Source of the DNA: Candidatus Saccharimonadota bacterium | GTDB lineage: Bacteria > Patescibacteriota > Gracilibacteria > UBA1369 > 2-02-FULL-48-14 | Length of the DNA: 32,000 bases | NCBI GenBank assembly: GCA_041661045.1 | Contig: JBAZVE010000001.1 | Coordinates: forward strand, 690,001 to 722,000 | Direction of reading: 5' to 3' | Part shown: piece after piece, positions 1,693 through 18,622 of the stretch | How the letters are laid out: each line of letters starts with the position of its first letter | Position numbering within the stretch: position 1 is the first letter of the stretch | Notes under the pieces: model-generated | Databases searched by the model: none | Seen by the model: only the letters and a program-made list of their open reading frames with translations | What the model was told of the DNA's origin: nothing | Position numbers and translations under genes: made by a program

Positions 1693-1900
1693 AATTTTGC
1701 TCAACGATTGTTAATGCTTTTTCGGCATCTTCTTCTTTACATTGCAGTTGATAGCCACCAAATGCATTTGAAAGTAATGGGTTCGTTCCAATTATTCCTT
1801 CGTTGTTGAGGAAGCATGGAATGCCTTCTGATTCGAGGTGGTTTTTACAGATGTTTGCTTCGTAAGGATCCAAAAAAGTTTTTATTGTGACGAAACTCAT
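1691..1900 (-). CDS. DUF2007-like small protein (putative signal-transducing protein fold)
   Basis: 69 aa. The pattern VTIxTFxDPxEAxxxKxxLEsEGIPCFLxNE resembles the DUF2007 family. Confidence 0.6.
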   Translation of the reverse strand: MSFVTIKTFLDPYEANICKNHLESEGIPCFLNNEGIIGTNPLLSNAFGGYQLQCKEEDAEKALTIVEQN

Positions 1901-2466
1901 TTACTCAGTAACTCAAAGGAGGCAATGATCTCCTGAATTTCTGCATTGATTCCATCTACTTCAGTTGATGGGCTGTAGTTGTAGTAGTAAGTAGCGTCTT
2001 CAGCAATGTATATTCTGTTGCCTTGCGTGACGAGTGGGTCCTCTTTTTCGTTTGCATACGAAATGATTACTTCAAAATAGTGGTTTCCACTAAATTCTGA
2101 TGTAAAGGTATAACTTGCTCGTTGCGGTGGATTGCAACCGAAACCACAATCGGTAAGATTACTTTTTTTCACGCTTACAAATCCCCAAGAAGAAGGAAAC
2201 TGCAGTGAAAATCCTGCACCTTCGTTGAATGTGTCTCTTACAGTAATTACGCTTGCTCCCGCCGTATCTTGATTTACTGATAATGCATAATCGGCCTCCG
2301 TTTCTGGTTCGGCGGAGCTTTCCTCCACAGTTTTCGTTTCATCTTCGATTGTTGGCACTGGAGTTTGGGAGCTTTGCCACCAGTACATCCCTCCGCCGAC
2401 TGCTACAGCCGTAATAATAACTGCGAGTATGACGGGAAGGATGCCTTTGGAATTTTGCTCATTCAT
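1897..2466 (-). CDS. N-terminally membrane-anchored secreted protein, unknown function
   Basis: 189 aa. It has a single N-terminal TM helix ending GGGMYWWQ, then an acidic linker and a soluble domain. It overlaps the downstream ORF by 4 nt. Confidence 0.65.
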   Translation of the reverse strand: MNEQNSKGILPVILAVIITAVAVGGGMYWWQSSQTPVPTIEDETKTVEESSAEPETEADYALSVNQDTAGASVITVRDTFNEGAGFSLQFPSSWGFVSVKKSNLTDCGFGCNPPQRASYTFTSEFSGNHYFEVIISYANEKEDPLVTQGNRIYIAEDATYYYNYSPSTEVDGINAEIQEIIASFELLSK

Positions 2467-2522
2467 GGTTTTATGAGTTAAGAATTATTTCTTGTTGGCA
2501 GTATAGAGGTCAGTGCAATTTT

Positions 2523-2567
2523 GTACAATGTTCGCGACAAAGCGAACCGTTTACCCTGCCGTTAGGG
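2523..2567 (-). repeat. degenerate short attC-like site (Z)
   Basis: gtacaat-GTTC-gcgacaaagcgaac...gcc-gttaggg. The left box and GKYC bulge are intact, there is a 6-bp hairpin gttcgc/gcgaac, and the right box is GTTAGGG. The body is deleted. Confidence 0.35.
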
Positions 2568-2630
2568 GATTAGATCTTGCTATTTCGTGTATAAGTTGTT
2601 AGGTTTGCTTACTAATTTTATTGGCTTCGA

Positions 2631-2933
2631 ATGAGTGCAATAGACATCAAATTCAATAGAGCTGCTACTCTTCATCTGCTTAGTCAAAGACCAAGAACTG
2701 TTCAGGAGCTTTGTGATGCGCTAGTGGATTCTGGAGTTGACGCTCATCGTTCTACTTATCATCGAATTATACAGGAATTAACTCGAGAGGGGTTAATAAC
2801 TCCTGCAGAAGTACTGCCTGCTTCTGGCCGTGGACCTGGATCAATAAGACACGAGCTTACTGCAGCTGGTAAAGAAGAAATTGGTAAGACACGAGCAGCA
2901 ATTGCAGCTGTTTTTATGGGGCCTTTCGCCTAA
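2631..2933 (+). CDS. winged-helix DNA-binding protein (putative transcriptional regulator), cassette-borne, inverted relative to array
   Basis: 100 aa. LLSQRPRTVQELCDAL...STYHRIIQELTREGLI resembles a wHTH (PadR/MarR/ArsR-like) recognition unit. The stop codon lies inside the left box of site A. Confidence 0.55.
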   Translation: MSAIDIKFNRAATLHLLSQRPRTVQELCDALVDSGVDAHRSTYHRIIQELTREGLITPAEVLPASGRGPGSIRHELTAAGKEEIGKTRAAIAAVFMGPFA

Positions 2934-2963
2934 TGTTCGTGAACCTGTTATTCATTGTTGGCT
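2928..2963 (-). repeat. internally deleted attC-like site (A), H/M family
   Basis: gcctaat-GTTC-gtgaa..cctg..ttattcat-T-gttggct. The ends are the same as in sites H and M, but the three-way-junction body is missing. Confidence 0.5.
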
Positions 2964-2979
2964 CTCGTTGCGCTGATTT

Positions 2980-3567
2980 TTATTCAAATTTTAGAGTGGA
3001 CATCATTTCTGTTAGATCATCAGCTGGTGGATCAGAAACTTCATGTATCCCAAGAGTATAAAAAATTACTACTGTACCTTTATTTGCTGCGAAATAGTAT
3101 GTTGTACCGTTCAAATCCTCAAGAATACCTTTTGTAAAATCATTCTCTCCCAAATGTATCTCTTCGGGAGATGTGGTGAGATAGTTGTAGTTTTTACCAA
3201 TATACTCTTCGAGAGTTAAGTCCGTTGTTTCAGATTTCACTCCAATGTTAGGGACCGTGCATGGTGCGATCATGTCACCTGGTGGAAGGGATTCAACAAA
3301 GCCTTCTAGGTCAAAATCAAGACAAGATTCAAATACATCTTGTTCCCACAAACCTTCTTGGGAAGGTGGTGACCACCAATTCTCGTGTGCAACCAGTGTG
3401 CTTGGGTACTCAAATGTAAACCCATTACCTCCCCAAGTATTTATATTTTCATCCTCCGCATCTTCAATTTCGAGAATGGCTTCTCGTTTTTGCCACGAGT
3501 AAATTCCGGCCCCTAAAATTAATGAGACTAAGAGGAGGGAGAGAATGATTTTGCTATATTTTGACAT
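2980..3567 (-). CDS. N-terminally membrane-anchored secreted protein, unknown function
   Basis: The track ORF 2980-3612 is trimmed to the internal ATG at 3565-3567 (MSKYSKIILSLLLVSLILGAGIYSWQ), because the upstream 45 nt lie inside attC-like site B. Confidence 0.65.
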   Translation of the reverse strand: MSKYSKIILSLLLVSLILGAGIYSWQKREAILEIEDAEDENINTWGGNGFTFEYPSTLVAHENWWSPPSQEGLWEQDVFESCLDFDLEGFVESLPPGDMIAPCTVPNIGVKSETTDLTLEEYIGKNYNYLTTSPEEIHLGENDFTKGILEDLNGTTYYFAANKGTVVIFYTLGIHEVSDPPADDLTEMMSTLKFE

Positions 3568-3685
3568 AAGATTTCGCAGTATGCGATATTCACTGGCTGT
3601 ATAATATCGCACGAAGTGCAGTGCAGCCAGTGAATATGGGTGTAGCGAGGTGCAACCGAGCGAAACCGCATACTGCGTGTTGCCA
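3564..3685 (-). repeat. attC-like site (B), left box degenerate
   Basis: L stems are cgcagtatgcg / cgcatactgcg, followed by -T-gttgcca. The P2 arm is cactggctg..cagccagtg with a ..gcacGAAgtgc.. loop. The left box acataag is degenerate and overlaps a start codon. Confidence 0.6.
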
Positions 3686-3705
3686 TAGAATAATTACGCC
3701 AATTT

Positions 3706-3714
3706 TGGTATAAT
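3706..3714 (+). promoter_or_regulatory. extended -10 promoter (TGgTATAAT) for cassette methyltransferase
   Basis: TG-n-TATAAT at 3706-3714, 18 nt upstream of the ATG at 3733. Confidence 0.5.
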
Positions 3715-3732
3715 GAGATAATTAAAATTAAA

Positions 3733-4254
3733 ATGAAACGAATTTTAGAAATAGGGCCGGGCTCGAATCCAATGCACCAAAAACATGGCGAGAATTTGAG
3801 GAAATTAGCACCAAATGAACGCAACTTGTTACTAGAGGAAGGAGAAGATTATACTGCGTTGGAATTACCAAGAGTTGCTTTTAATCACTGGATTTGGCAG
3901 ACCGCGAAAGAAGCATACGGAGATCGTGTGCATTTTGTGCATGGAGATGGAACAGAAATGTCATTTGAGGATGAAAGTTTTGATGAGTTGGTTGCGAACG
4001 GTTCATTTGTTGGTGATGAAAAAACTTTTGCTGAATTTCATCGTGTTTTAAAACAAGGAGGAATTTTGCGTTTGGGAACAAAAGCACAAAATGCACAAAG
4101 AGTAGTGCATGATTGGGCGTATAGACTTGGCAAAATGGGCTTTACCATGGTGGATGAATTAACTCATCGTTATAGGTATACCCATAATAAGGGAGTGATT
4201 GCCAATCTTAGAGGAACTGATTATGTCGTTTTAGTTTTTCGTAAGGAATCCTAA
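3733..4254 (+). CDS. class I SAM-dependent methyltransferase, cassette-borne, inverted relative to array
   Basis: 173 aa. Motif I is ILEIGPG, followed by the acidic post-I ALEL, GDGTEMSFEDESFDEL and LKQGGIL. Confidence 0.8.
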   Translation: MKRILEIGPGSNPMHQKHGENLRKLAPNERNLLLEEGEDYTALELPRVAFNHWIWQTAKEAYGDRVHFVHGDGTEMSFEDESFDELVANGSFVGDEKTFAEFHRVLKQGGILRLGTKAQNAQRVVHDWAYRLGKMGFTMVDELTHRYRYTHNKGVIANLRGTDYVVLVFRKES

Positions 4255-4280
4255 TTGAGCGTCCTGTCAAAATTATTCTA

Positions 4281-4300
4281 TGGCAAAGTGCGTGTTAAGT
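4281..4300 (-). repeat. minimal remnant attC-like site (C)
   Basis: tggcaaa-GTGC-g-T-gttaagt. Both R boxes and the bulge are present with no body. The left hexamer plus 9 more nt (4272-4286) are the exact reverse complement of 3680-3694, next to site B. Confidence 0.5.
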
Positions 4301-4380
4301 GATGTAATTTTTCTGGTTTAATCCTTTGATCTCTAAAAGAAATCACCTTTTAAAGGGAATAAAAATTTGATTTTCCGTCA

Positions 4381-4704
4381 TTATATGTCAATAACTTCAA
4401 CATGATCAGCAATTCCTAGTTCCCATCTTGGGTTAAAATTAGGATCTCCAAAAGTTGCCTGATATCTAGGATCAAGGTCTTCCTCTCCTTGAAAAACAGC
4501 TTGTCCGAGTGTCAAAACTACTAAATCATGTGCTGTGCCAAATACTTCCTCAACGGCAATGTCATATGCTCTTTCAGCACTAACTGGCCATTCTTGTTGT
4601 AATCTTTTGGCAACATTTGGAGCGTTATATCCATCCGTGCCGGCAATGACTTTCATTACGACTTCATCATGTTCACATACCGATACTATTCCTTGTGTAC
4701 CCAT
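4381..4704 (-). CDS. hypothetical protein (cassette ORF)
   Basis: 107-aa ORF, the only long ORF between sites C and D. No recognisable domain. Confidence 0.6.
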   Translation of the reverse strand: MGTQGIVSVCEHDEVVMKVIAGTDGYNAPNVAKRLQQEWPVSAERAYDIAVEEVFGTAHDLVVLTLGQAVFQGEEDLDPRYQATFGDPNFNPRWELGIADHVEVIDI

Positions 4705-5308: not shown

Positions 5309-5445
5309 GTACAACGGCTGTGCGTTGGTGAAGTTGGACAGTAGTAAAATATACGAAGTGTGACTACTGGCCAACTTGGGTGAGGGCTTTATGGTTGAGC
5401 GAAGCCAGCCTAAAAAAAGACCGAACTGCTAACGCGCTGTTGTAC
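5309..5445 (-). repeat. attC-like site (E)
   Basis: gtacaac-GGCT-gtgcgttgg ... ctaacgcgc-T-gttgtac. P2 is aagttggacagtagt-AAAATAT-acGAAgt-..actactggccaactt, followed by TTGGGTGAG. It contains an exact GCGAAGC. Confidence 0.8.
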
Positions 5446-5838: not shown

Positions 5839-5954
5839 GTACAACGGTCGCAGTATAGCTGAAGTTTATACATGGTAAAATGACCGAAAAGCCAACCAAG
5901 TATAAACTTGGGTGAGGGCTGATCTAGCCCGAACCAGCTATACTGCTGTTAGCT
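5839..5954 (-). repeat. attC-like site (F)
   Basis: gtacaac-GGTC-gcagtatagctg ... cagctatactgc-T-gttagct. It has a P2 with GGTAAAAT, then TTGGGTGAG and a gggct/agccc hairpin, then GAAC. Confidence 0.8.
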
Positions 5955-6317: not shown

Positions 6318-6377
6318 AGCTAATGTTGGGAATGACTGAGCGAAGCGAAGGAATGAACCGCATAGTCATTGTTAGGC
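6318..6377 (-). repeat. attC-like site (G), 60-bp short form
   Basis: agctaat-GTTG..atgact-gaGCGAAGCGAAGgaatGAACc-gcatagtcat-T-gttaggc. It lacks P2 and keeps the GCGAAGC mini-hairpin and GAAC. Confidence 0.65.
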
Positions 6378-6791: not shown

Positions 6792-6897
6792 GCCTAATGT
6801 TCGTGAATAACCGAAGGTTGCTAATGGTAAAACATGCCGAAGGCGGACCGTTGGCAACTTTGGGCGAACGAAGTGAGCCGGTTATTCACTGTTGTAC
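6792..6897 (-). repeat. attC-like site (H)
   Basis: gcctaat-GTTC-gtgaataaccg ... cggttattcac-T-gttgtac. P2 is gttgctaatggt-AAAACAT-gccGAAggc-gg-accgttggcaac with two G.T pairs. It is followed by TTTGGGCGAA and cGAAg. The body is about 90% identical to site M. Confidence 0.85.
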
Positions 6898-6930
6898 GCT
6901 GTATTAAAATTTGATCGCGTTCAGCGAGCA

Positions 6931-6959
6931 TTGGAAGAGTGGCAATTTTTTGCTATAAT
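6931..6959 (+). promoter_or_regulatory. sigma70-like promoter TTGGAA-N17-TATAAT for inverted cassette ORF
   Basis: The -35 is at 6931-6936 and the -10 at 6954-6959. The -35 lies inside the cassette's terminal inverted repeat. Confidence 0.6.
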
Positions 6960-6982
6960 GTAAAGAATTAACTTTTTGTTCT

Positions 6983-7399
6983 ATGGCCATGGAAGGTCCT
7001 AATTACGACGATCCGATTGAGCAAGATAAGCAACACGCTTTGAATCAAATTAGAACTATTGGGCCAGAAAAACCAGTAGGGTATTTGCCAGTAGAAACCA
7101 TCACAGGTTATTGTGGTCAAAATTTTGATGTATTTGTAGCAGAATGTCGTCAGAGAGGTCACGAAACTCGTATATTCACGGGCGGAGGATGGCCTGGTTT
7201 TTCTGGCTCATTGTATGTATATGATAAAGTTTCTCTGCAAAATTTGCTCAATCGGAACCAAAGTATTCTGGAACAATCTGGTTGGCCACTGAATCCTGAT
7301 GAATTTGTAGCTAATCTTCATGTTTGGGTTCAAGAAGGAACTCCTATTTTTAAGTTGATTGCTCAAGCATTTGGAGATAAGTTCAGCGAAAGTCTTTAA
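6983..7399 (+). CDS. hypothetical protein (cassette ORF, inverted relative to array)
   Basis: 138-aa ORF, the only long ORF between sites H and I, with its own promoter. Confidence 0.65.
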   Translation: MAMEGPNYDDPIEQDKQHALNQIRTIGPEKPVGYLPVETITGYCGQNFDVFVAECRQRGHETRIFTGGGWPGFSGSLYVYDKVSLQNLLNRNQSILEQSGWPLNPDEFVANLHVWVQEGTPIFKLIAQAFGDKFSESL

Positions 7400-7447
7400 G
7401 CAAAAATTGCCACTCTTTCAATCCTGTTAGGGAAATTTTAGTATGGC

Positions 7448-7569
7448 GTACAACGTCCGAGACTATGAGAAGTCGGACAGGTGTAAAATACGCTGAAGGC
7501 GTACACCTGTCCAATTTGGGTGAACGACTGATCAAAGAGAAGGAGTGAACCTCATAGTCTCTGTTGTGT
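7448..7569 (-). repeat. attC-like site (I)
   Basis: gtacaac-GTCC-gagactatgag ... ctcatagtctc-T-gttgtgt. P2 is gtcggacaggtgt-AAAATA-cgcTGAAGgcg-t-acacctgtccaat, followed by TTGGGTGAA and ..GAAC. Confidence 0.85.
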
Positions 7570-7598
7570 GATGTTTTGCTGCAGTTACCCAGCGTCTA

Positions 7599-7627
7599 TA
7601 GACAAAATATATGTAAAGTGTTATAAT
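7599..7627 (+). promoter_or_regulatory. sigma70-like promoter TAGACA-N17-TGtTATAAT for inverted cassette ORF
   Basis: The -35 is at 7599-7604. The extended -10 has TG at 7619-7620 and TATAAT at 7622-7627. Confidence 0.6.
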
Positions 7628-7652
7628 TCTTACTTATCCCTAAAGCTTTTAC

Positions 7653-8027
7653 ATGAAGTCAACTACCGATTCAGATCAACCACATTTTAATGGACTGGAG
7701 ATATCAGAGGTGCCCAGAAAAATAAGAGTACGAACTACAACATATCCAAATGGGCTTGTTGGTGTTTTGTCTAGGAATGGCAATTCTGTGACATTTAAGA
7801 CATTAGAAGATGAGAATTACCCCGCTATACAGCAAGCAGGTGGTTATTGCGATGCTGTTTGGGAGTATCAATTTGAATTAGATACTAATGGACAGCCCAT
7901 TCGTACGGTAGAGAAAACGCTTGTAGTAAAGGAAGGTCAGTGGGCACCTTTGGACCCTAGCTTTCCCGAGCATATATCGGAGGGGCCTAATTATATGTGG
8001 AGTGTAATTACTGACACATTGTCATAA
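7653..8027 (+). CDS. hypothetical protein (cassette ORF, inverted relative to array)
   Basis: 124-aa ORF between sites I and J, with its own promoter. Confidence 0.65.
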   Translation: MKSTTDSDQPHFNGLEISEVPRKIRVRTTTYPNGLVGVLSRNGNSVTFKTLEDENYPAIQQAGGYCDAVWEYQFELDTNGQPIRTVEKTLVVKEGQWAPLDPSFPEHISEGPNYMWSVITDTLS

Positions 8028-8045
8028 AAGCTGCAGCAAAATTTC

Positions 8046-8162
8046 ACACAATGTTCGAGACTATGTAAAGTTTGCCAGTGATAAAATATGCTGAAGGCGG
8101 ATCACTGGCAAATTTGAGCGAAACGAGCAAAGCGAAGTGGAGCTACATAGTCTCTGTTGTGA
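8046..8162 (-). repeat. attC-like site (J)
   Basis: acacaat-GTTC-gagactatgta ... tacatagtctc-T-gttgtga. P2 is gtttgccagtgat-AAAATAT-gcTGAAggc-gg-atcactggcaaat, followed by TTTGAGCGAA and aGCGAAGt. Confidence 0.85.
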
Positions 8163-8180
8163 GAAGTTGCTTTGAACTTT

Positions 8181-8408
8181 TTATTTTGCTTTCGATTTGC
8201 TCATTTGATGTACGATGAGCGAAACAATCAGGCCAATAACTCCACCAACAATCATGCTAACGAAAACAACGGGCACAACTGGATTTGAGGATTCTAAATC
8301 TTGAGAGACAATGAATTGGATAGTGCTATAGACGGTGAGAGCTGAGACTAGCCCACAGAGGAGGCCTGTTGCAATGCCTGTTGTATAGAGATGTTTTGGA
8401 TGATGCAT
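8181..8408 (-). CDS. small two-TM membrane protein (paralog of 10213-10440)
   Basis: 75 aa, MHHPKHLY..two hydrophobic helices..SKSKAK. About 70% identical by eye to the ORF at 10213-10440. Confidence 0.7.
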   Translation of the reverse strand: MHHPKHLYTTGIATGLLCGLVSALTVYSTIQFIVSQDLESSNPVVPVVFVSMIVGGVIGLIVSLIVHQMSKSKAK

Positions 8409-8475
8409 AAGTGTAAAGTAAATTATTACCCTGATTGTTTAGACTCTTTTATATTATATGGTTCAAAGCAATTTC

Positions 8476-8581
8476 GTACAACGGTCGCGCATAAACGAAG
8501 AAGACCAGCGGTAGAATATCCCGTAGGGTTACCGCTGGTCAATTTGTGCGAACGAAGTGAGCTGTTTATGCGCTGTTGTAC
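8476..8581 (-). repeat. attC-like site (K)
   Basis: gtacaac-GGTC-gcgcataaac ... gtttatgcgc-T-gttgtac. P2 is gaccagcggt-AGAATAT-cccGTAggg-tt-accgctggtc, followed by TTTGTGCGAA and cGAAg. Confidence 0.85.
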
Positions 8582-8598
8582 GATGCCGTGAAAAATGG

Positions 8599-8841
8599 CT
8601 ACTCTTTTACTGGAAGACAGGTAATTGTACCTAATTCACCACTAACCCAATTGCCATCTAAATCATATAGTCTTGTGATAGTAGATGTTCCGTCAGGATT
8701 GTTTTCCAAAACTTCTCCATGAAATTGTTTGGTAGGGTCATAGGGTTTAAGGCCAAAGTTACTCATCCAGCTAAATTGTGAAAAAGTAAATCTAGGCAAT
8801 TCTTTTGCTTCTTCAGGGGAAAGGGTACGTGGATTCTCCAT
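8599..8841 (-). CDS. hypothetical protein (cassette ORF)
   Basis: 80-aa ORF between sites K and L. Confidence 0.6.
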   Translation of the reverse strand: MENPRTLSPEEAKELPRFTFSQFSWMSNFGLKPYDPTKQFHGEVLENNPDGTSTITRLYDLDGNWVSGELGTITCLPVKE

Positions 8842-8897
8842 ATTTCATGGTGATTAGGAATGTAAACTACTCTAATTATAACATTTTTCACGGTTTC

Positions 8898-9036
8898 GTA
8901 CAACGTTCCGCACTATGCGAACTTGTGCAGGTGTAAAATAGCCGAAGGCGGACACCTGTACAAGTTGGGTGAAGGTTTTTCAGGCTGCGCAAAGCCAGCC
9001 GATCAGAAAACCTGAACCGCATAGTGCGTGTTGTAC
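8898..9036 (-). repeat. attC-like site (L), near-identical body to P
   Basis: gtacaac-GTTC-cgcactatgcg ... cgcatagtgcg-T-gttgtac. P2 is cttgtgcaggtgt-AAAATA-gccGAAggc-gg-acacctgtacaag with one G.T pair. It is followed by TTGGGTGAA, P3 aggtttt../..aaaacct and GAAC. Confidence 0.85.
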
Positions 9037-9062
9037 GCTGTAATAAAAAATGCGATGACAAA

Positions 9063-9296
9063 CTATTTATCTTTCTTTTCTTCAACTCCACCAACCCATT
9101 GAACAACAGGCTTTGCCACTTCTGGCGTAGTTAGAGGTTCGAAAACTACTTCCCCAGCTTTTTTTGCTGTATCACCTGCTTGTGAAACAACTGGAGGTTG
9201 TAAACCATCCCAAGTAACAGCAGGAGATTCTGGCTTGGCAGGTGGCAAAGCCTCCCATGCAGTTACAGGAGATTCTGTTTTTTTTGTGTCAGACAT
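9063..9296 (-). CDS. hypothetical Pro/Val-rich small protein (cassette ORF)
   Basis: 77-aa ORF between sites L and M. Low-complexity composition. Confidence 0.55.
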   Translation of the reverse strand: MSDTKKTESPVTAWEALPPAKPESPAVTWDGLQPPVVSQAGDTAKKAGEVVFEPLTTPEVAKPVVQWVGGVEEKKDK

Positions 9297-9352
9297 GTAA
9301 ATGTTTGTTAAATTATGGTCTATCAGATGATTATAGCATTTTTTGTTATGGC

Positions 9353-9458
9353 GTACAATGTCCGTGAATAACCGAAGGTTGCTAATGGTAAAATATGCCG
9401 AAGGCCAACCATTAGCAACTTTGAGCGAACGAAGTGAGCCGGTTATTCACTGTTAGGC
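9353..9458 (-). repeat. attC-like site (M), H family
   Basis: gtacaat-GTCC-gtgaataaccg ... cggttattcac-T-gttaggc. The P2 stem gttgctaatggt/accattagcaac is perfectly paired. Confidence 0.85.
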
Positions 9459-9472
9459 GTTGGTTAGGGGTG

Positions 9473-10003
9473 CTAACGAATTGATGAAAAAATTTCTTCG
9501 ACTAAACCAGCTTCTGCGACTGGGGGCTGAAAAAATATTTGGCAATAATAATCCTGAGATTTTTCTTCTGACCATTCAGCAAGACTGAGACCGATGTTGC
9601 CATTTCCAACATTATCTTGAGTGCCAAATATTGAGTATTTTACTTTTACTAATTCGTCTTGTTTCTCAAAAGTGCGAGTGTCGGATTGAAGTATTTCAGC
9701 CTCCATGCCGCCTTGCCAGTCGCAGTCGATCATCATTGTTTTCTCCTGTTTTGCGTCGTAAAACTGTGTATAAACTCCTCCTGAATCATAAGTCTCATCA
9801 GCATAAGTCCAAGATGAAGGGTAATCTAATTCATAATTAATGCTACCGAATGTGAAGGAGGTAAGCAGGGCTTCTGGGCTTTCGACTGCGACGACATCAT
9901 CTGTTTCAATGGTAATACCGGAATTTATAGCAGTATCATCTACTTGTGACGAACAGGCGGCAAAAGAAACTGTGATAGCGAATAGGAGTAGAAATTTTTT
10001 CAT
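9473..10003 (-). CDS. putative lipoprotein, unknown function (cassette ORF)
   Basis: 176 aa. The signal peptide has a lipobox-like MKKFLLLFAITVSFAAC. Confidence 0.7.
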   Translation of the reverse strand: MKKFLLLFAITVSFAACSSQVDDTAINSGITIETDDVVAVESPEALLTSFTFGSINYELDYPSSWTYADETYDSGGVYTQFYDAKQEKTMMIDCDWQGGMEAEILQSDTRTFEKQDELVKVKYSIFGTQDNVGNGNIGLSLAEWSEEKSQDYYCQIFFQPPVAEAGLVEEIFSSIR

Positions 10004-10078
10004 ATTTACTTGTTAAATGATACTTGAATCATATCGGAAGTTGTTGTTTTTACAAAACTTCTCGTACCTCTAACTTTC

Positions 10079-10192
10079 GCCTAACGTTCGCGCATATGCA
10101 AAGTGCGAGCGCGGTAAAATGTTAGCACGCAGTGCTACACCGCGCGAGCATTTGGGCGAGGCCTCAGCCAAGCTGCATATGCGCTGTTGTAC
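10079..10192 (-). repeat. attC-like site (N)
   Basis: gcctaac-GTTC-gcgcatatgca ... tgcatatgcgc-T-gttgtac. P2 is gtgcgagcgcggt-AAAATGT-tagcacGCAgtgcta-c-accgcgcgagcat, followed by TTGGGCGAG. Confidence 0.85.
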
Positions 10193-10212
10193 GGTGTTGC
10201 TTTGAGCAAACA

Positions 10213-10440
10213 CTATTTGGTTTTTGATTTACTAACTTGATGTACTGTGAAAGACACGATCGAGCCAATAATGCCTCCAACTAAAAGGCTTATAACTACA
10301 ACTGCAATAACTGGATTTGTTGTTTCTAAGTCTTGTGAAGCAATATATTGCATTGTGCTGTATACGGTTAGTGCAGAAATAAGACCGCAGAGGACACCTG
10401 TTACTAGACCTGTCACATAAAGATGTTTTGGATGATGCAT
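10213..10440 (-). CDS. small two-TM membrane protein (paralog of 8181-8408)
   Basis: 75 aa, MHHPKHLY...SKSKTK. Same length and architecture as the ORF at 8181-8408. Confidence 0.7.
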   Translation of the reverse strand: MHHPKHLYVTGLVTGVLCGLISALTVYSTMQYIASQDLETTNPVIAVVVISLLVGGIIGSIVSFTVHQVSKSKTK

Positions 10441-10501
10441 ATTGATGAAATTAATTATTGGCTTGATTGAATATGATTATTGTACTGCTCAAAGCAATTT
10501 C

Positions 10502-10625
10502 GTATAACGGCCGAGAATATGTGAAGTTTTGTAGCGGTACAATTTGCCCGAAGGGCTCACCACTACAAAACTTGGGTGAGCGACTGAGTGGAACGAAGGA
10601 GAGAACCACATATTCTCTGTTAAGT
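10502..10625 (-). repeat. attC-like site (O)
   Basis: gtataac-GGCC-gagaatatgtg ... cacatattctc-T-gttaagt. P2 is gttttgtagcggt-ACAATTT-gcccGAAgggc-tc-accactacaaaac, followed by TTGGGTGAG and ..GAAC. Confidence 0.85.
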
Positions 10626-10641
10626 GGTGTTGTGCTGATTT

Positions 10642-11154
10642 TTACTTACAATATCCAGTAGACTTGTCATAAGTCTTACCATCGGAGCAGCTGCAACGGG
10701 CATTTAACCAGTCGCCATCCGTTTCCGTACAGTTATTCCCTACGACATCAGTCCAAAAATAATATGCCCCTTCTGGGTTCGGCAAGCCAACAGACACAGC
10801 AAAAGCGGCTCCACCTGGACCGCCGAATGTCGTCTGGCAGTAACCTGTTTTTTTGTCGTACATCATCTCTTGCGTTTGCCTTTCTTCTAGCGGACATTCA
10901 CAAACACTGTCGCTAAATGAACCGCCACTTAATTCACAGTTATATCCAACTAATTCGTCCCATTCATTTGATGAAGTGACTTCAGTTATAGTTTCAGGTT
11001 CGTTTAGTTCTTGCTCTTGGACGGAAACTGATGGCGACTCTTGCGATTCATTCGTTTGCCAAAAGTAAACTCCTCCACCACCAATCAATGCAGCGATAAC
11101 TGCAACGAGTACCATTTTGCTTGTTTGAGACATAAATGTTTTGGTTAAATGCAA
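10642..11154 (-). CDS. Cys-rich membrane-anchored secreted protein, unknown function (cassette ORF)
   Basis: 170 aa. The N-terminal TM helix ends GGGGVYFWQ, followed by an acidic linker. The C-terminal domain has about 10 Cys and a repeated KxTGYC motif. The start may be the internal MSQTSK. Confidence 0.65.
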   Translation of the reverse strand: MHLTKTFMSQTSKMVLVAVIAALIGGGGVYFWQTNESQESPSVSVQEQELNEPETITEVTSSNEWDELVGYNCELSGGSFSDSVCECPLEERQTQEMMYDKKTGYCQTTFGGPGGAAFAVSVGLPNPEGAYYFWTDVVGNNCTETDGDWLNARCSCSDGKTYDKSTGYCK

Positions 11155-11185
11155 ATTTAGCTTACGGGAAAATCAGCGCAATGTC

Positions 11186-11323
11186 ACTTAACGTCCCGCA
11201 CTATGCGAGCTTGTGCAGGTGTAAAATAGCCGAAGGCGGACACCTGTACAAGTTGGGTGAAGGTTTTCAGGCTGCGCGAAGCCAGCCCATCAGAAAACCT
11301 GAACCGCATAGTGCGTGTTATAT
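11186..11323 (-). repeat. attC-like site (P), near-identical body to L
   Basis: acttaac-GTCC-cgcactatgcg ... cgcatagtgcg-T-gttatat. The body matches L almost base for base and contains an exact GCGAAGC. Both R-box hexamers differ from those of L. Confidence 0.85.
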
Positions 11324-11327
11324 GGTT

Positions 11328-11720
11328 TTATTTGCCATCTTCCAAGACGCAATCTGCTTCAATTTCAATCAGCCATTCTGGATTTATAAATCCAGACACT
11401 TCTGCGAAAGTACAGGCGGGCTGTATGTTAGAGAAAAATTCTCCGTGAGCTTTTGCAGCATCTTTCCACGTTTTCATATCTCTTAACAAGATACGTGTGC
11501 GAATTACATCTTCAAGCGAACCGCCGGCTTGCTCGATAACATTTTTGATAATCGTTAGGCAACGTTTCGATTGTTCATATACATTGCCTGGAGAATGAAC
11601 TGAACCATCTTCCGCAATTGGCGCAGTTCCAGTGACAGCGATAAAGTTGCCGATTCTTACAGCCCGCGAAAACCCAATTTCTTTTTCTAACGGCTGATTG
11701 TAAGTGATGTTTTTTCTCAT
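11328..11720 (-). CDS. ridA: RidA/YjgF/UK114 family protein (cassette ORF)
   Basis: 130 aa. FSRAVRIGNFIAVTGTAP...VYEQSKRCLTIIKNVIEQAGGSLEDVIRTRILL...IEIEADC is the typical RidA family pattern. Confidence 0.85.
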   Translation of the reverse strand: MRKNITYNQPLEKEIGFSRAVRIGNFIAVTGTAPIAEDGSVHSPGNVYEQSKRCLTIIKNVIEQAGGSLEDVIRTRILLRDMKTWKDAAKAHGEFFSNIQPACTFAEVSGFINPEWLIEIEADCVLEDGK

Positions 11721-11757
11721 AAATGTTTTTTAAGAGGTAGTGCAGGCAAATAATGCC

Positions 11758-11883
11758 ATATAACGGCTGGGTATAGGCGATGTTGTTGCGCGGTAAAATA
11801 TGCCACGAAGTGGCTCACCGCGCAACAATATGGGAGAACGAAGAAGCGAAGCGACTGAGTGAACCGCCTATACCCTGTTACAT
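11758..11883 (-). repeat. attC-like site (Q)
   Basis: atataac-GGCT-gggtataggcg ... cgcctataccc-T-gttacat. P2 is gttgttgcgcggt-AAAATAT-gccacGAAgtggc-tc-accgcgcaacaat. It is followed by an exact GCGAAGC and GAAC. Confidence 0.85.
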
Positions 11884-12004
11884 GATGTGCATATTTTCCT
11901 TAATTTCTTGAAAAGGAATTCTTCTTTAAAAGAGACTGATTTTGTTTTCTGTTTTGGGCGAGGGCAGAGGGGATTAAGGGGTGAATGCCCGAGCCCAAAA
12001 CTCC

Positions 12005-12832
12005 TCATTCCACGTCTCCTTGCGCTATCCTATTTTGTGCTTCTTGCATTAATTTCTCTGCTTCCTTTTTCATGAGATCATTAATTCTGTCTACTGCATC
12101 CATACTTCCGTTATATCTTTCCATTACTTTCTTATCCCTGAAGTATTTCAGAGTTGTTCCCTCGTATTTCCATACTGTCCAAAGACGATTTTTCATCAGC
12201 TTGAGGTTGTAAACTTTTGCTTCGGCAATGGAGAGGGCATTTTCAATCTTGAGTGAATTTACGAATGTCTCAATCATGGTTATGAATCCGCCAAAATTTT
12301 CGACGAAAGCTGTTCGTTGAGCTGGCGGTCTCATTCGTTCGGGTGTTGCCATTCTCTCATTGCGATCCAGCAACCTTTCAAAGTCATATCGAAATTGTTT
12401 AATATTGCCGTTTGCTGATCTTACCAAGTAATCAGTGATTAAAATTTTGTTGTGAACATAATAACTTTTGAGTCTCATTTTGATCAGATCTTCATCAAAG
12501 TAAATGGCAATGGTTGCTGGGAAATTAGTCTCTTGGATAGCATAAAAATTTGGGTCGGTTACTACTTGAACTTGCTCCACAATTGTTTTTGCTCTGGCAA
12601 TAAAATCTTCAAGCTGACTGACTGCGACAAGTAAATGACTTAATGTTTGAGAAAAAGCTATCTCTGTCCGCCTGATTGCTTCTTTTCTGTTTGATCTCTT
12701 TTGTAGGCACCCTTTAACTAAAAATCCAATAACTGAGAGAATGATTGCTAAAAATGGACCTAGGGCAGAGCCAATTAGCGTTTGCCATTTTTCGATAAAT
12801 TCAGTTGATGTGATTAATTTTAGTGTTTCCAT
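12005..12832 (-). CDS. hypothetical membrane-anchored protein (third gene of three-gene cassette)
   Basis: 275 aa with one TM helix near the N-terminus and a helical/coiled C-terminal part. No recognisable domain. Confidence 0.65.
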   Translation of the reverse strand: METLKLITSTEFIEKWQTLIGSALGPFLAIILSVIGFLVKGCLQKRSNRKEAIRRTEIAFSQTLSHLLVAVSQLEDFIARAKTIVEQVQVVTDPNFYAIQETNFPATIAIYFDEDLIKMRLKSYYVHNKILITDYLVRSANGNIKQFRYDFERLLDRNERMATPERMRPPAQRTAFVENFGGFITMIETFVNSLKIENALSIAEAKVYNLKLMKNRLWTVWKYEGTTLKYFRDKKVMERYNGSMDAVDRINDLMKKEAEKLMQEAQNRIAQGDVE

Positions 12833-12872
12833 TGCTTGTGGATGATACTCTTTTTACCCTATAAAAAACACC

Positions 12873-13508
12873 TTAATTGTATGAGGGAACAGAATGTTCC
12901 CTACAATCATAGTTGCCTTTTATGTTGGCGTTATAGTAACTGCCAAAGGAGGATGCTTTTTGCAGTTCTGCCCAAATTGACTTTGGTGTTTCGCAATAGT
13001 GATAATATTTTCCATTAATGTTCATAATCAAGTAACTGTTGCTTTTGTCGTACCATGCGCCTTCGATGAAAGAGCTTTTTGATGTATTTAAGTATTCAAA
13101 ATATGAACTATCGAGATTAACGGAATCTTTTCGATACTGAACAGCAACGTAATTCTGTTTTGATTGTGAATCTTTTTCGTACTTTTCAAGGCAATCAAAA
13201 AGAATATCGGTCATTAACGATTCTTCTTCGTCTTCAAGCTCGAAGGTCGGATATTCGCCTTGAGAATTTACGAAAGAACCATCTGGTTGAGTTATGTATC
13301 CCTGAGAATTCAGAAATTCATTTCCTTTTTGGGCGGCTTCAGAAAGACAAACGTCATAGAAAGGTGAAGATGTTATCTCCTCAATGGTATTTTTTGATGA
13401 ATTGTCTTGAATATCTGGCCTGAGAACGTAAAACATGAAGCCACCAATAAGAAGTGTCCAAAAGGCAACTATGATTATTATTGGTTTTTTGGAGGAATTA
13501 GTTTTCAT
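12873..13508 (-). CDS. hypothetical membrane-anchored secreted protein (second gene of three-gene cassette)
   Basis: 211 aa with an N-terminal TM helix (PIIIIVAFWTLLIGGFMFYVL) and a soluble domain. Confidence 0.65.
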   Translation of the reverse strand: MKTNSSKKPIIIIVAFWTLLIGGFMFYVLRPDIQDNSSKNTIEEITSSPFYDVCLSEAAQKGNEFLNSQGYITQPDGSFVNSQGEYPTFELEDEEESLMTDILFDCLEKYEKDSQSKQNYVAVQYRKDSVNLDSSYFEYLNTSKSSFIEGAWYDKSNSYLIMNINGKYYHYCETPKSIWAELQKASSFGSYYNANIKGNYDCREHSVPSYN

Positions 13509-13517
13509 AAGTCTGTA

Positions 13518-13781
13518 TCACGTTAAATTAGTAATAATGCCGTAAAGTATAGAAAAAATAATGAAGGAAAAAATAATTCCAAGCTGAATCAGTATGCTTT
13601 TTTTGAGTGGAAATTTGTATATTGCTTCCAAAATTATCCCCAAGGCCAATATCAACGTTAAAACTACTAGCCAAATTATAGAAAAATTAAAATGCCACAT
13701 TAACAGCTCTAACAATATGTAAACAAAAATAATGCCTTGGTTTGTTCTATTATTAAATGTTTTTGTTAGAGCGTTTTTCAT
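13518..13781 (-). CDS. hypothetical small integral membrane protein (first gene of three-gene cassette)
   Basis: 87 aa with 2-3 hydrophobic helices. It lies 9 nt upstream of the next ORF. Confidence 0.55.
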   Translation of the reverse strand: MKNALTKTFNNRTNQGIIFVYILLELLMWHFNFSIIWLVVLTLILALGIILEAIYKFPLKKSILIQLGIIFSFIIFSILYGIITNLT

Positions 13782-13914
13782 GGTTTGTATTATATAGTAA
13801 ATTGTTTTCGGAGCGAAGCGGAGAAAACTCCTTATTTCCCCTCTATAAAACAGAAAACAAAATCAGATCTCATTTTTAAGAATTGGCTTTAGCCAAAAGG
13901 AAAATATGCATTTC

Positions 13915-14036
13915 ATGTAACGTCCGTGTGTTGGCGAAGTTTGGACGTGGTAAAATTAGCACGAAGTGCGTACCACGGCCAAACTTGTGAGAGGCTTTTC
14001 TGGAGGAAAGGCCGAACCGCTAACACACTGTTATGT
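13915..14036 (-). repeat. attC-like site (R), attC of the integrase-proximal cassette
   Basis: atgtaac-GTCC-gtgtgttggcg ... cgctaacacac-T-gttatgt. P2 is gtttggacgtggt-AAAATTA-gcacGAAgtgc-gt-accacggccaaac, followed by TTGTGAGAG, a P3 hairpin and GAAC. Confidence 0.85.
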
Positions 14037-14473: not shown

Positions 14474-14523
14474 ATTTTTTGGATTAAGTGATTAAAAGCA
14501 TTTCTCTAAAAAATGGAATGGCA

Positions 14524-14760
14524 CATAACTCGTTTCTAACGGAAAACAGTGCGGCTAGCAAGGGGGAATGGGGTGTTTTGGTGAAATGGGGGAGGAGGAG
14601 TGAAGAAACGAGTTGTGGGGAGTGGGGTGACAAAAAGGTGAATTCTGTAAGGAATTTGTCAGGTTTTTGTCATGAATTTGTCAGAAGGGCGGGGTGGGAG
14701 TGGGAAAAATTCAGGAAAGTTTAAGGAAAAATTCAGAAAAAATTCAGGATTTTTTCAGGT
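14524..14760 (-). promoter_or_regulatory. attI-like junction and intI/cassette intergenic control region
   Basis: acataa|c at 14524-14530 is the exact complement of the site R right box gttatgt, and the cassette inverted repeat ends there. Further right lie 2x GAATTTGTCAG (14652, 14674; 22 bp apart), 3x AAAAATTCAGR (14705, 14727, 14738) and a tract of (R)TGGGG runs (14562-14704). Confidence 0.6.
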
Positions 14761-14805: not shown

Positions 14806-15618
14806 ATGGAACTCAAAGAAGCTTTGGCCTTAATGGAAAGAGAGCTTCGGCTGAGGCATTACAGCTCTAAAACGGTGAAAAATTACTTAAGATGTGTGGA
14901 GCTTTATTTTTCGGGGAAGAAAAGTTTGGCGTATCGGGAGGAGGAGCTCAAAGGGTTTTTGTTTGGGAAGCTTGAAGCTGGGGCGGCGCCGGAGACGGTG
15001 AATCTTTATCTTTGTGCGGTGAAGTTTTTTTATAAACAATGTTTGCACTTTAAGGGTATTGTGAAAGTTCGTTTTGCGCGAAGAAATGTGCGCTTGCCGG
15101 TGGTGCTTTCGAGGGAGGAGATCCTTAAGATTTTAGAATTTATTCCCAACACAAAGCACCGTTATTTGGTGGCGCTGGCGTATGGGGCGGGGCTGCGCGT
15201 GAGTGAGGTGGTTCGGTTGAGGGTTGCAGATCTTGATTTTGCACGGAAGCTGCTTGTGGTGCGAGAAGGGAAGGGTGGCAAAGCGAGGGTGACGCTTTTG
15301 CCCGAAAATTTGAGGGAAGAGCTGAAGAGTTTTGTTGTGGGGAAAGTGGCGATGGATTTTGTGTTTGAGAGTGAACGGGGTGGGGCTTTGAGTACACGGT
15401 CGGCTCAAAAGGTTTTTGCGGTGGCTTTGGAGAAAACGGGACTGCAGAAAGAGGCTTCGTTCCATTCTTTGCGGCACAGTTTTGCGACGCATTGTTTGGA
15501 AAATGGAGTGGACAGTCGCTTCATTCAAAAACTGCTTGGACACAGTGCCATTCGTACTACAGAAAGGTATACGCAAGTGAGTCAGGTGAGTTTGGCGGGA
15601 ATTCGGAGTCCACTTTAG
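14806..15618 (+). CDS. IntI-like tyrosine recombinase lacking the IntI-specific insertion
   Basis: About 270 aa from the ATG at 14806 (the track starts at TTG 14761). Blocks shared with IntI1 are RLPVVLSxEE, YGAGLRVSE, LRVADLDF, VREGKGGKAR, HSLRHSFATH, LLGHS and ERYTQV, plus the C-terminal GIRSPL. Only about 58 aa separate GKGGKAR from HSLRH, against about 105 in IntI1. Confidence 0.85.
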   Translation: MELKEALALMERELRLRHYSSKTVKNYLRCVELYFSGKKSLAYREEELKGFLFGKLEAGAAPETVNLYLCAVKFFYKQCLHFKGIVKVRFARRNVRLPVVLSREEILKILEFIPNTKHRYLVALAYGAGLRVSEVVRLRVADLDFARKLLVVREGKGGKARVTLLPENLREELKSFVVGKVAMDFVFESERGGALSTRSAQKVFAVALEKTGLQKEASFHSLRHSFATHCLENGVDSRFIQKLLGHSAIRTTERYTQVSQVSLAGIRSPL

Positions 15619-18547: not shown

Positions 18548-18622
18548 GGTCCCATCGTCTAACGGTTAGGACAACAGGTTTTCATCCTGTAAATCGGAGT
18601 TCGATTCTCCGTGGGATCACCA
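18548..18622 (+). tRNA. tRNA-Glu (anticodon UUC), CCA encoded
   Basis: Cloverleaf by hand. The acceptor stem is GGTCCCA/TGGGATC, the D stem GTCT/GGAC and the anticodon stem ACAGG/CCTGT with loop TTTTCAT (TTC). The T arm is CGGAG-TTCGATT-CTCCG, followed by a discriminator A and CCA. Confidence 0.9.

Follow-up and report, generated by a model that had tools for sequence, protein, structure and literature searches.

The DNA analysed here, referred to as the window, is a stretch of 32,000 nucleotides (contig JBAZVE010000001.1, positions 690,001 to 722,000) from an uncultivated bacterium of the candidate phyla radiation (CPR). Between positions 2520 and 14530, approximately, it carries short open reading frames (ORFs), mostly on the minus strand, and 19 recognisable sites lying between the ORFs, 14 of which are complete. 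The best explanation of the region from 2.5 to 14.5 kb is that it is the cassette array of an integron-like element in a Peregrinibacteria genome. An attI-like junction (GCACATAAC/TCGTTTCTAACGG, 14522-14550) marks the place where the last cassette meets the attI side, and the gene for a tyrosine recombinase is oriented divergently from the array. The junction with the last cassette and the placement of this gene indicate that the array reads on the minus strand, and the plus strand of the window is the folding "bottom" strand of integron nomenclature. The features on which the analysis turns are as follows.

8898..9036, plus strand: site L; core from L' to L'' at 8909-9028; R' box GTACAAC, spacer GTTC, and T-GTTGTAC (R'').
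11186..11323, plus strand: site P; core 11197-11315; boxes ACTTAAC and GTTATAT; same core family as L (96%).
6792..6897, plus strand: site H; core 6803-6889; boxes GCCTAAT and GTTGTAC.
9353..9458, plus strand: site M; core 9364-9450; boxes GTACAAT and GTTAGGC; same core family as H (92%).
2927..2960, plus strand: site A, of the H/M type with an internal deletion; ends GCCTAAT-GTTC-GTGAA..GTTATTCAT-T-GTT.
14522..14550, plus strand: attI-like junction, GCACATAAC/TCGTTTCTAACGGAAAAC; attI side kept in L013 and L029.
14806..15618, plus strand: IntI-like tyrosine recombinase of 270 aa without the I2 insertion; divergent from the array.

Every complete site had the same layout on the plus strand, xxxxAA(C/T), a 4-nt spacer (GKYY), an 11-nt L', inner hairpins, an 11-nt L'', a T and GTTxxxx. 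From AAC to GTT, sites L and P differed by 4 substitutions and one indel, and H and M differed by 7 substitutions in 98 nt. The variable tetranucleotides of L and P were GTAC versus ACTT on the left and GTAC versus ATAT on the right, and the boxes of H and M were GCCT/GTAC versus GTAC/AGGC. The core identities within the two families are clear outliers from the 48-72% of the other window sites (76% for S10/S11), a background computed among 13 complete window sites. When the array was searched against itself by BLAST, the likeness ended at the site ends, and the flanks of L and P, like those of H and M, were unrelated. A first-pass annotation had described these five sites and their differing boxes; their coordinates and sequences were as described there, site A did have H-type ends flanking its internal deletion, and the pattern was repeated in independent contigs.

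Metagenomes scanned for the right end of the L/P core yielded 11 true loci, and genomes scanned for the H/M right end yielded one Gracilibacteria and one Peribacteria metagenome-assembled genome (MAG). The R'' tetranucleotide next to L/P-type cores was GTAC in L, ATAT in P and L004, AGGC in L008, GTGC in L012, GTGT in L013 and ATGC in L014. The H/M-type cores were followed by GTAC (H), AGGC (M), GTAG (L004) and GTGT (L023). Linkage was assessed in 48 non-redundant sites from the window and 12 other contigs, cores being called near-identical at an identity of at least 0.89. The 25 near-identical pairs, from at least 8 contigs, had a mean R'' distance of 2.12 out of 4, compared with 2.16 for the other pairs (permutation P=0.45), and the R' box showed the same lack of linkage to core family. 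R'' was shared in only 2 of the 25 pairs, one of which is a whole-cassette duplicate. The variable bases of R'' are statistically independent of the core family, so the attC property of an R'' linked to its own core was absent, and the earlier proposal that the core is uncoupled on both sides from the ORF and its inverted-repeat arms holds. The mosaic recurred in independent contigs of other samples, so neither chance nor misassembly explains it; assembly chimeras were also rejected because the shared TGTT and AAC are too short to mislead an assembler. The reverse-complement relationship of the H and M boxes (GCCT..GTAC versus GTAC..AGGC) was considered as the footprint of an event on the other strand and dismissed, as GTAC and AGGC are the commonest boxes, the chance of the coincidence is about 0.06 and no other family pair shows it.

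The boundaries of the shared module were mapped from the per-position mismatch frequency in 18 near-identical core pairs, compared with unrelated pairs.

Left flank: mismatch in 56-78% of near-identical pairs, the background level.
Left xxxx: 39-89%, the background level.
AA: 0%, invariant.
C of AAC: 22%, background 17%.
Spacer position 1: 0%, invariant G.
Spacer position 2: 22%, background 29%.
Spacer position 3: 67%, background 50%.
Spacer position 4: 28%, background 36%.
L' position 1 onward: 0-17%, background 44-75%.
Right side, L'': 0-17%, the core level.
Right side, TGTT: 0%, invariant.
Right side, xxxx: 44-67%, the background level.

The breakpoints were sharp, on the left at the first position of L' and on the right at L'' position 11/TGTT. 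The spacer was identical in 2 of the 18 pairs, compared with a background of 25%, and because it is unlinked from the core the shared module is the hairpin from L' to L''. The left boundary that had been placed at AAC, giving a module from C-GKYC to T-G, therefore has to be moved inward. The spacers at 8905-8908, 11193-11196, 6799-6802 and 9360-9363 are examples; the variation was mostly C/T, and GTTC versus GTCC was seen even within the recent whole-cassette duplicate in locus L001. This variability may reflect a C/T hot spot, the bulge being unpaired, or an exchange zone.

That duplicate, in CP064962 (L001), is a 656-bp segment repeated at 97% identity and running from AAC through the core, R'' and the ORF to the next AAC, which is the unit expected from a crossover at AA/C. 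Together with the attI junction, whose AAC/TCGTTT is kept in three genomes, it agrees with the definition of a cassette as an ORF plus its downstream site, exchanged at AA/C (G/TT). It confirms the assumed orientation, in which the core pairs with the ORF on its plus-strand right, and it makes the retention of R'' by its core, the canonical model as the first-pass annotation had stated it, the correct null model. Because a canonical crossover at AA/C cannot part a core from its R'', a second process is needed.

The second process could be built on the first, if a canonical duplication were followed by slippage between the direct repeats of R'': the resulting deletions would end in the TGTT of two different sites and join a copied core to the next ORF module. 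The L001 duplicate is a substrate of the right kind, microhomology deletions are many, and integrase-independent slippage between similar attC sites is on record (PMC5371416). This course is nevertheless very unlikely: it takes two steps per re-association, yet 7 different R'' boxes were found on the L/P core alone, and it leaves the unlinked spacer and the swaps of internal hairpins, described below, unexplained.

The reciprocal evidence came from the ORF side. The sequence to the right of a site, from GTT, complements the sequence to the left of the next site, up to AAC, over about 22 nt, with 9 perfect pairs, 2 positions pairable only as G·T on the plus strand and about 11 more pairs. Adjacent arm pairs matched at 15.5 of 22 positions (with some degenerate sites included; 17-20 is typical), compared with 8.3 of 22 for non-adjacent arms (Mann-Whitney P=1e-6). 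In classical cassettes only the 7-bp box is common to both ends. The arms are cassette-specific and contain the variable box bases xxxx and about 15 further bases on each side, as in 8575-8597 with 8882-8904; in the three-ORF cassette at 11884-13914 they reach about 75 nt (11877-11955 with 13847-13921). The two modules that could be followed in other genomes, and the site next to the first, are these.

10185..10508, minus strand: ORF75b module; its ORF (10213-10440) encodes a membrane protein of 75 aa, and the module, inverted-repeat arms included, lies between T-GTT and AAC.
10079..10192, plus strand: S15, a complete site; the R''-side core of the ORF75b module in the window.
11317..11764, minus strand: RidA ORF module (ORF 11328-11720), beside site P; arms GTTATATGG.. 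and ..CCATATAAC.

The ORF75b module was 94.4% identical over 324 nt to modules in L016, L017 and L018, from other metagenomes, and the identity began exactly at TGTT and stopped exactly at AAC. The core joined to the R'' side of the module was not the same everywhere but came in three forms: in the window it was S15, in L016, L017 and L019-22 a remnant of the CGCACTTTGCG family, and in L018 an H/M-type right part, ..GAGCCGGTTATTCAC-T-GTT. Orthologues of the RidA module, at 82-85% nucleotide identity, likewise adjoined other cores. In L029, where the module is the first cassette and the neighbouring recombinase has 272 aa, the core is a hybrid; in L033 it is of the GGGTATATACG type and in L035 of the GCGTATAGCCG type. 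Among the orthologues the box bases were within one substitution of each other and the two arms co-varied (ATAT/ATAT, ATGT/ATGT, GTAT/GTAT; one mismatch, in L035). Since the box bases change on both arms together, they are inherited with the ORF module and not with the core. Reassortment of this kind in related genomes had been set beforehand as a test of the uncoupling, and it is what was found: hairpin cores and ORF-plus-arm modules assort independently and have separate histories. The ORF75a and ORF75b paralogues of the window, which have different cores, were uninformative in this respect, as a neutral core is saturated at their divergence (70% nucleotide identity).

These modules also bear on whether new cassettes are simply built on existing cores, a template core being copied behind a gene and the arms made simultaneously. 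Host-specific formation has classically been argued from the small number of core families behind many unrelated ORFs (PMC5371416, PMC8352920), a situation that also holds here, and the 22-nt cassette-specific arms need an origin. However, one ORF-plus-arm module, 94% identical between copies, carries three cores, which means that cores change after the cassette exists, and the core families are 90-97% identical across lineages whose recombinases are 56-67% identical; assembly on existing cores is thus distinctly unlikely to be the source of the mosaic.

Several side observations concern the same modules. Spacer position 2 was G in all five RidA and ORF75 5' ends, compared with 12.5% overall, which hints that this base may be linked to the ORF module. 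Cassette orthologues aside, the named proteins closest to that of the RidA cassette, at about 80% amino acid identity, were from DPANN archaea, in Micrarchaeota, Aenigmarchaeota, Pacearchaeota, Woesearchaeota and Nanoarchaeota. The relatives' arrays were invaded by insertion sequences (rve, DDE_Tnp_1, Y1_Tnp and IS630-type), at 1721-4442, 7157-7934 and 8834-9262 of L001 and upstream of the ORF75b module in L017 and L018. In L016-L021 the AAC of the ORF75b module was followed by non-site sequence beside an IS630-like element.

Not all exchange respected the ends of the core. In three hybrid sites L' and L'' came from different families, which prevents proper folding: L011 combines an H/M left half with an L/P right half, L024 passes within the apical loop from a left half of another family to an M-type right half, and L029 is a third site with mismatched L' and L''. 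The junctions of the hybrids lay at or close to the conserved apical loop. Moreover, the 53-nt third hairpin of L/P was also present in L005+3577, in an otherwise different core, and the L/P stem-2 hairpin (52 nt) in L005+427 and in window site S10. The L/P family violates the four-gamete test, since the splits (L, L008, L013 versus P, L012) and (L, P, L008 versus L013, L012) are incompatible. Of the claim that the breakpoints lie at the R boxes, the right junction at TGTT stands, whereas the hybrids and the shared single hairpins break inside cores.

Deletions were also common in these arrays, where the truncated sites resemble deletions at microhomologies of 4-6 nt, and their frequency indicates that short homologies are in use in this lineage. 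One such site has its complete counterpart elsewhere.

6318..6377, plus strand: truncated site; the right half of a core family that is complete in CP064962 (L001 204-325); deletion at an AATGT microhomology.

A mini-site near 4276-4295 (ATGGCAA/AGTGCGTGTT) was considered as the product of cuts at R' and 8 bp off in L'', and set aside because a GCAA microhomology deletion from a CGCAAAGTGCG-type core fits equally well.

The reading that we favour, with a probability of roughly 0.4, is that core hairpins are replaced whole and non-reciprocally, with foldability acting as a filter. Independent modules with sharp boundaries are plain in the alignments; a copying mechanism and a selective filter would account for them. 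Whole cores would be copied from site to site, in the broad sense a gene conversion, by template switching or short-tract recombination between sites aligned on the invariant AAC-G and T-GTT. The result would be foldable only if L' and L'' shared a donor and the arms stayed untouched, and half-replacements would persist only as dead hybrid sites. Given such a filter, the junctions of the survivors would lie at the base of the hairpin, and one process can cover whole-core replacement, replacement of single hairpins and the dead hybrids. The spacer that stays behind when a core moves and the use of short homologies in these arrays also speak for this reading, as does the gene conversion already put forward for 59-base elements (PMC1382264).

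Four points weigh against replacement by copying: 1) only 4-5 nt of contiguous homology lie outside the core, which is poor for RecA-type conversion between families, 2) microhomology switching at AACG should copy the donor spacer, and none was seen to be copied, 3) core likeness is not highest within one array, the nearest relative of P being L012 (97%) and that of L being L008 (96%), and as the two L/P copies in the window are not each other's closest kin recent homogenisation within the array is not their source and transfer between genomes must be added, and 4) a single-step core change was not caught among the loci compared. In a related observation, core families were 90-97% identical across CPR lineages with recombinases only 56-67% identical (L023 2194-2299 in a Gracilibacteria MAG, L024 in a Peribacteria MAG and L001 in Peregrinibacteria), and this distribution implies exchange of cassettes or cores between CPR lineages.

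The structure of the sites bears on the main alternative. Further complete sites of the window are listed here.

5309..5445, plus strand: S06, complete site.
5839..5954, plus strand: S07, complete site.
7448..7569, plus strand: S10, complete site; stem-2 hairpin common to the L/P family.
8046..8162, plus strand: S11, complete site.
8476..8581, plus strand: S12, complete site.
10502..10625, plus strand: S16, complete site.
11758..11883, plus strand: S18, complete site.
13915..14036, plus strand: S19, complete site; belongs to the first cassette.

In the fold predicted with DNA parameters, the R stem is succeeded by a G·T pair and then, on the R' arm, by a bulge of 3 nt; beyond it a perfect L stem leads to a three-way junction, from which a long stem 2 with a conserved loop cap (GGTAAAATA.GCCGAAGGC) and a variable third hairpin emerge. 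In 38 of 47 sites the plus strand gave the stabler fold (Wilcoxon P=4e-7), as expected of attC sites, which are imperfect palindromes that fold as single strands with one strand favoured. The L stem was a perfect 11 bp in 35 of 48 sites, formed from 32 distinct L' sequences, and the L stems covary strongly. The terminal boxes agree with the attC form RYYYAAC...GTTRRRY in that GTT was invariant and AAC was invariant save for AAT in 4 of 48 sites, the variable part being RNNN rather than RRRY. However, the L stems contained no single-base bulges, so the extrahelical bases that are expected in the L-box region of an attC site, where they determine strand choice, were absent; the only asymmetry of the fold was the 3-nt bulge on the R' arm together with the third hairpin.

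Two further details of the sites were recorded. About 7 window sites have AAT for AAC at the presumed cleavage triplet (2931, 4865, 6322, 6796, 8050, 9357 and others), always with G next (CpG to TpG), and such sites were rare in the other loci (1 of 35). The tip of stem 2 is a small hairpin with covarying stems (for example 8940-8950, 11228-11238 and 6836-6846), either GCC-GAAG-GC or GCAC-GAAG-TGC in type, and resembles the very stable d(GCGAAGC) DNA mini-hairpin; both mapped junctions in hybrid cores fall in or beside it.

The best NCBIfam match of the recombinase was TIGR02249, integron integrase, with 194.6 bits in two stretches (cutoff 265). In the PDB the top match was VchIntIA (2A3V), residues 12-177 of the query aligning to 11-181 of the chain and 199-270 to 246-317. 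The two enzymes share the C-terminal ..SPL, but about 43 residues of the IntI-specific I2 region are absent from the window protein, which thus lacks the I2 domain of an integron integrase. Homologues of about 270 aa at 50-67% identity are widespread in CPR, and those examined at 56-67% identity adjoin arrays of the same site type. In the window, as in L001 (67% identity), L027 (56%), L029 and L013, the gene is a direct neighbour of attI and the array and is transcribed away from them; the positions in three of these relatives are given below.

L001, 10001-10813: recombinase gene.
L027, 10001-10813: recombinase gene.
L029, 3988-4806: recombinase gene.

The arrangement typical of Xer and dif, a single dif with 11-bp arms and a 6-bp centre and no array, was not found, since the gene adjoins a 19-site array. 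The protein could be both the Xer of the cell and the cassette recombinase, and standard integron finders would probably not class it as an integron integrase. In IntI, the contact of I2 with the extrahelical bases of attC keeps the L box from being attacked and thereby prevents a second strand exchange (Escudero et al. 2016, PMC4792948). Both partners of this contact, I2 and the extrahelical bases, are missing here.

The main rival to replacement by copying draws on this absence. The enzyme without I2 may cut at AA/C and also exchange strands at the R''/L'' side, by second-strand or other-strand exchange, so that cores and ORF-plus-arm modules reassort by site-specific recombination. The alignment with 2A3V passes over chain residues 182-245, in the I2 region, the 11-bp L stems are perfect and have no extrahelical bases, and it is precisely the I2 contact that bars IntI from the L box (PMC4792948); the right junction, moreover, lay in the invariant T-GTT in all pairs, and one ORF module was joined to three cores exactly there. 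We regard exchange by the recombinase on both sides as a serious though somewhat less probable alternative. The spacer lies 3' of AA/C and does not travel with the core, which disfavours a crossover there as the left junction unless the spacer is a C/T mutational hot spot. Cuts at the R and L boxes cannot produce swaps of internal hairpins or hybrids joined in the apical loop, purely reciprocal swaps would leave the number of copies of a core in a genome unchanged, and the sole recent duplicate has canonical AAC-to-AAC ends. A broader version of the proposal is doubtful: an integrase relative of Xer length, without I2, would run a true CPR cassette system and swap cores as well as cassettes because second exchange is unblocked, making cores and gene-plus-arm modules two mobile units. 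If this were true, the system could be a living Xer-integron intermediate and could provide a means of renewing cassette sites or of attaching them in the first place. Gene conversion, crossovers at the R boxes and assembly on existing cores, the three mechanisms listed in the first-pass annotation, remain the right candidates, and none is proven.

The rest of the window adds the following. Four cassettes contain plus-strand ORFs, against the direction of the array (2631-2933, 3733-4254, 6983-7399 and 7653-8027), one of which encodes a methyltransferase-like protein; at least two of the four are preceded by TATAAT-like boxes (about 6955 and 7623). Exact-protein look-ups of the ORFs beside L and P gave no match. 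The only hit of the Rfam scan of the window was a tRNA gene (18548-18619, RF00005, 62 bits), 3 kb past the recombinase; the sites had no match among the curated families. In its right half the window is richer in G+C, and the ORFs there are of ordinary housekeeping size.

In Vibrio-type arrays the site ends are uniform, so that core and gene histories are inseparable. Here the variable boxes and long arms label each gene module like a barcode, which reveals that hairpin cores move independently of genes and where the junctions lie. No reliable model exists for how cassettes acquire and keep recombination sites (PMC4792948, PMC5371416), and the array provides direct sequence evidence on how such sites are made or renewed in integrons. 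It also points to an integron-like system in CPR whose recombinase is without the domain thought to define integron integrases. The literature searched held nothing relevant on integrons in CPR, Patescibacteria or Peregrinibacteria; it contained no mapping of R'' and long arms going with the gene while the hairpin is exchanged, and described neither hybrid by-products nor a CPR array with an I2-less recombinase, an absence that is no proof of novelty. Similar attC sites behind unrelated genes are known in chromosomal integrons, for which gene conversion and host-specific cassette formation have been proposed (PMC1382264, PMC5371416, PMC8352920), and the variable 4 bp of R' need not match R'' within an array (PMC5371416).

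The known systems most like this one are the sedentary chromosomal integrons, for example the Vibrio cholerae repeats. Both have small, mostly promoterless ORFs, between which lie imperfect-palindrome sites that end in AAC...GTT, and both have an attI junction and a divergently oriented tyrosine recombinase; in both, related sites stand behind unrelated genes and the start of a cassette is complementary to its own R''. Unlike them, the present array has several core families rather than one, common to different CPR lineages, highly variable box bases within 22-nt arms that make the breakpoints mappable, sites with a three-way junction, a 3-nt bulge and no extrahelical bases, and a recombinase without I2. 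The IntI integrases (TIGR02249; VchIntIA, 2A3V) are the best NCBIfam and PDB matches of that enzyme, with N-terminal and catalytic parts that align and the same ..SPL end, whereas its 270 aa, its score below the 265-bit cutoff and its I2 gap set it apart, its length being like that of XerA or XerC-like enzymes. Finally, gene conversion was proposed to explain the homogeneity of 59-base elements (59-be; Boucher et al. 2006, PMC1382264), sites that, as here, are homogenised independently of the genes they follow. The present array goes beyond that proposal in tract limits, hybrid by-products and reciprocal evidence from ORF modules, and differs from it in that likeness is not highest within the array.

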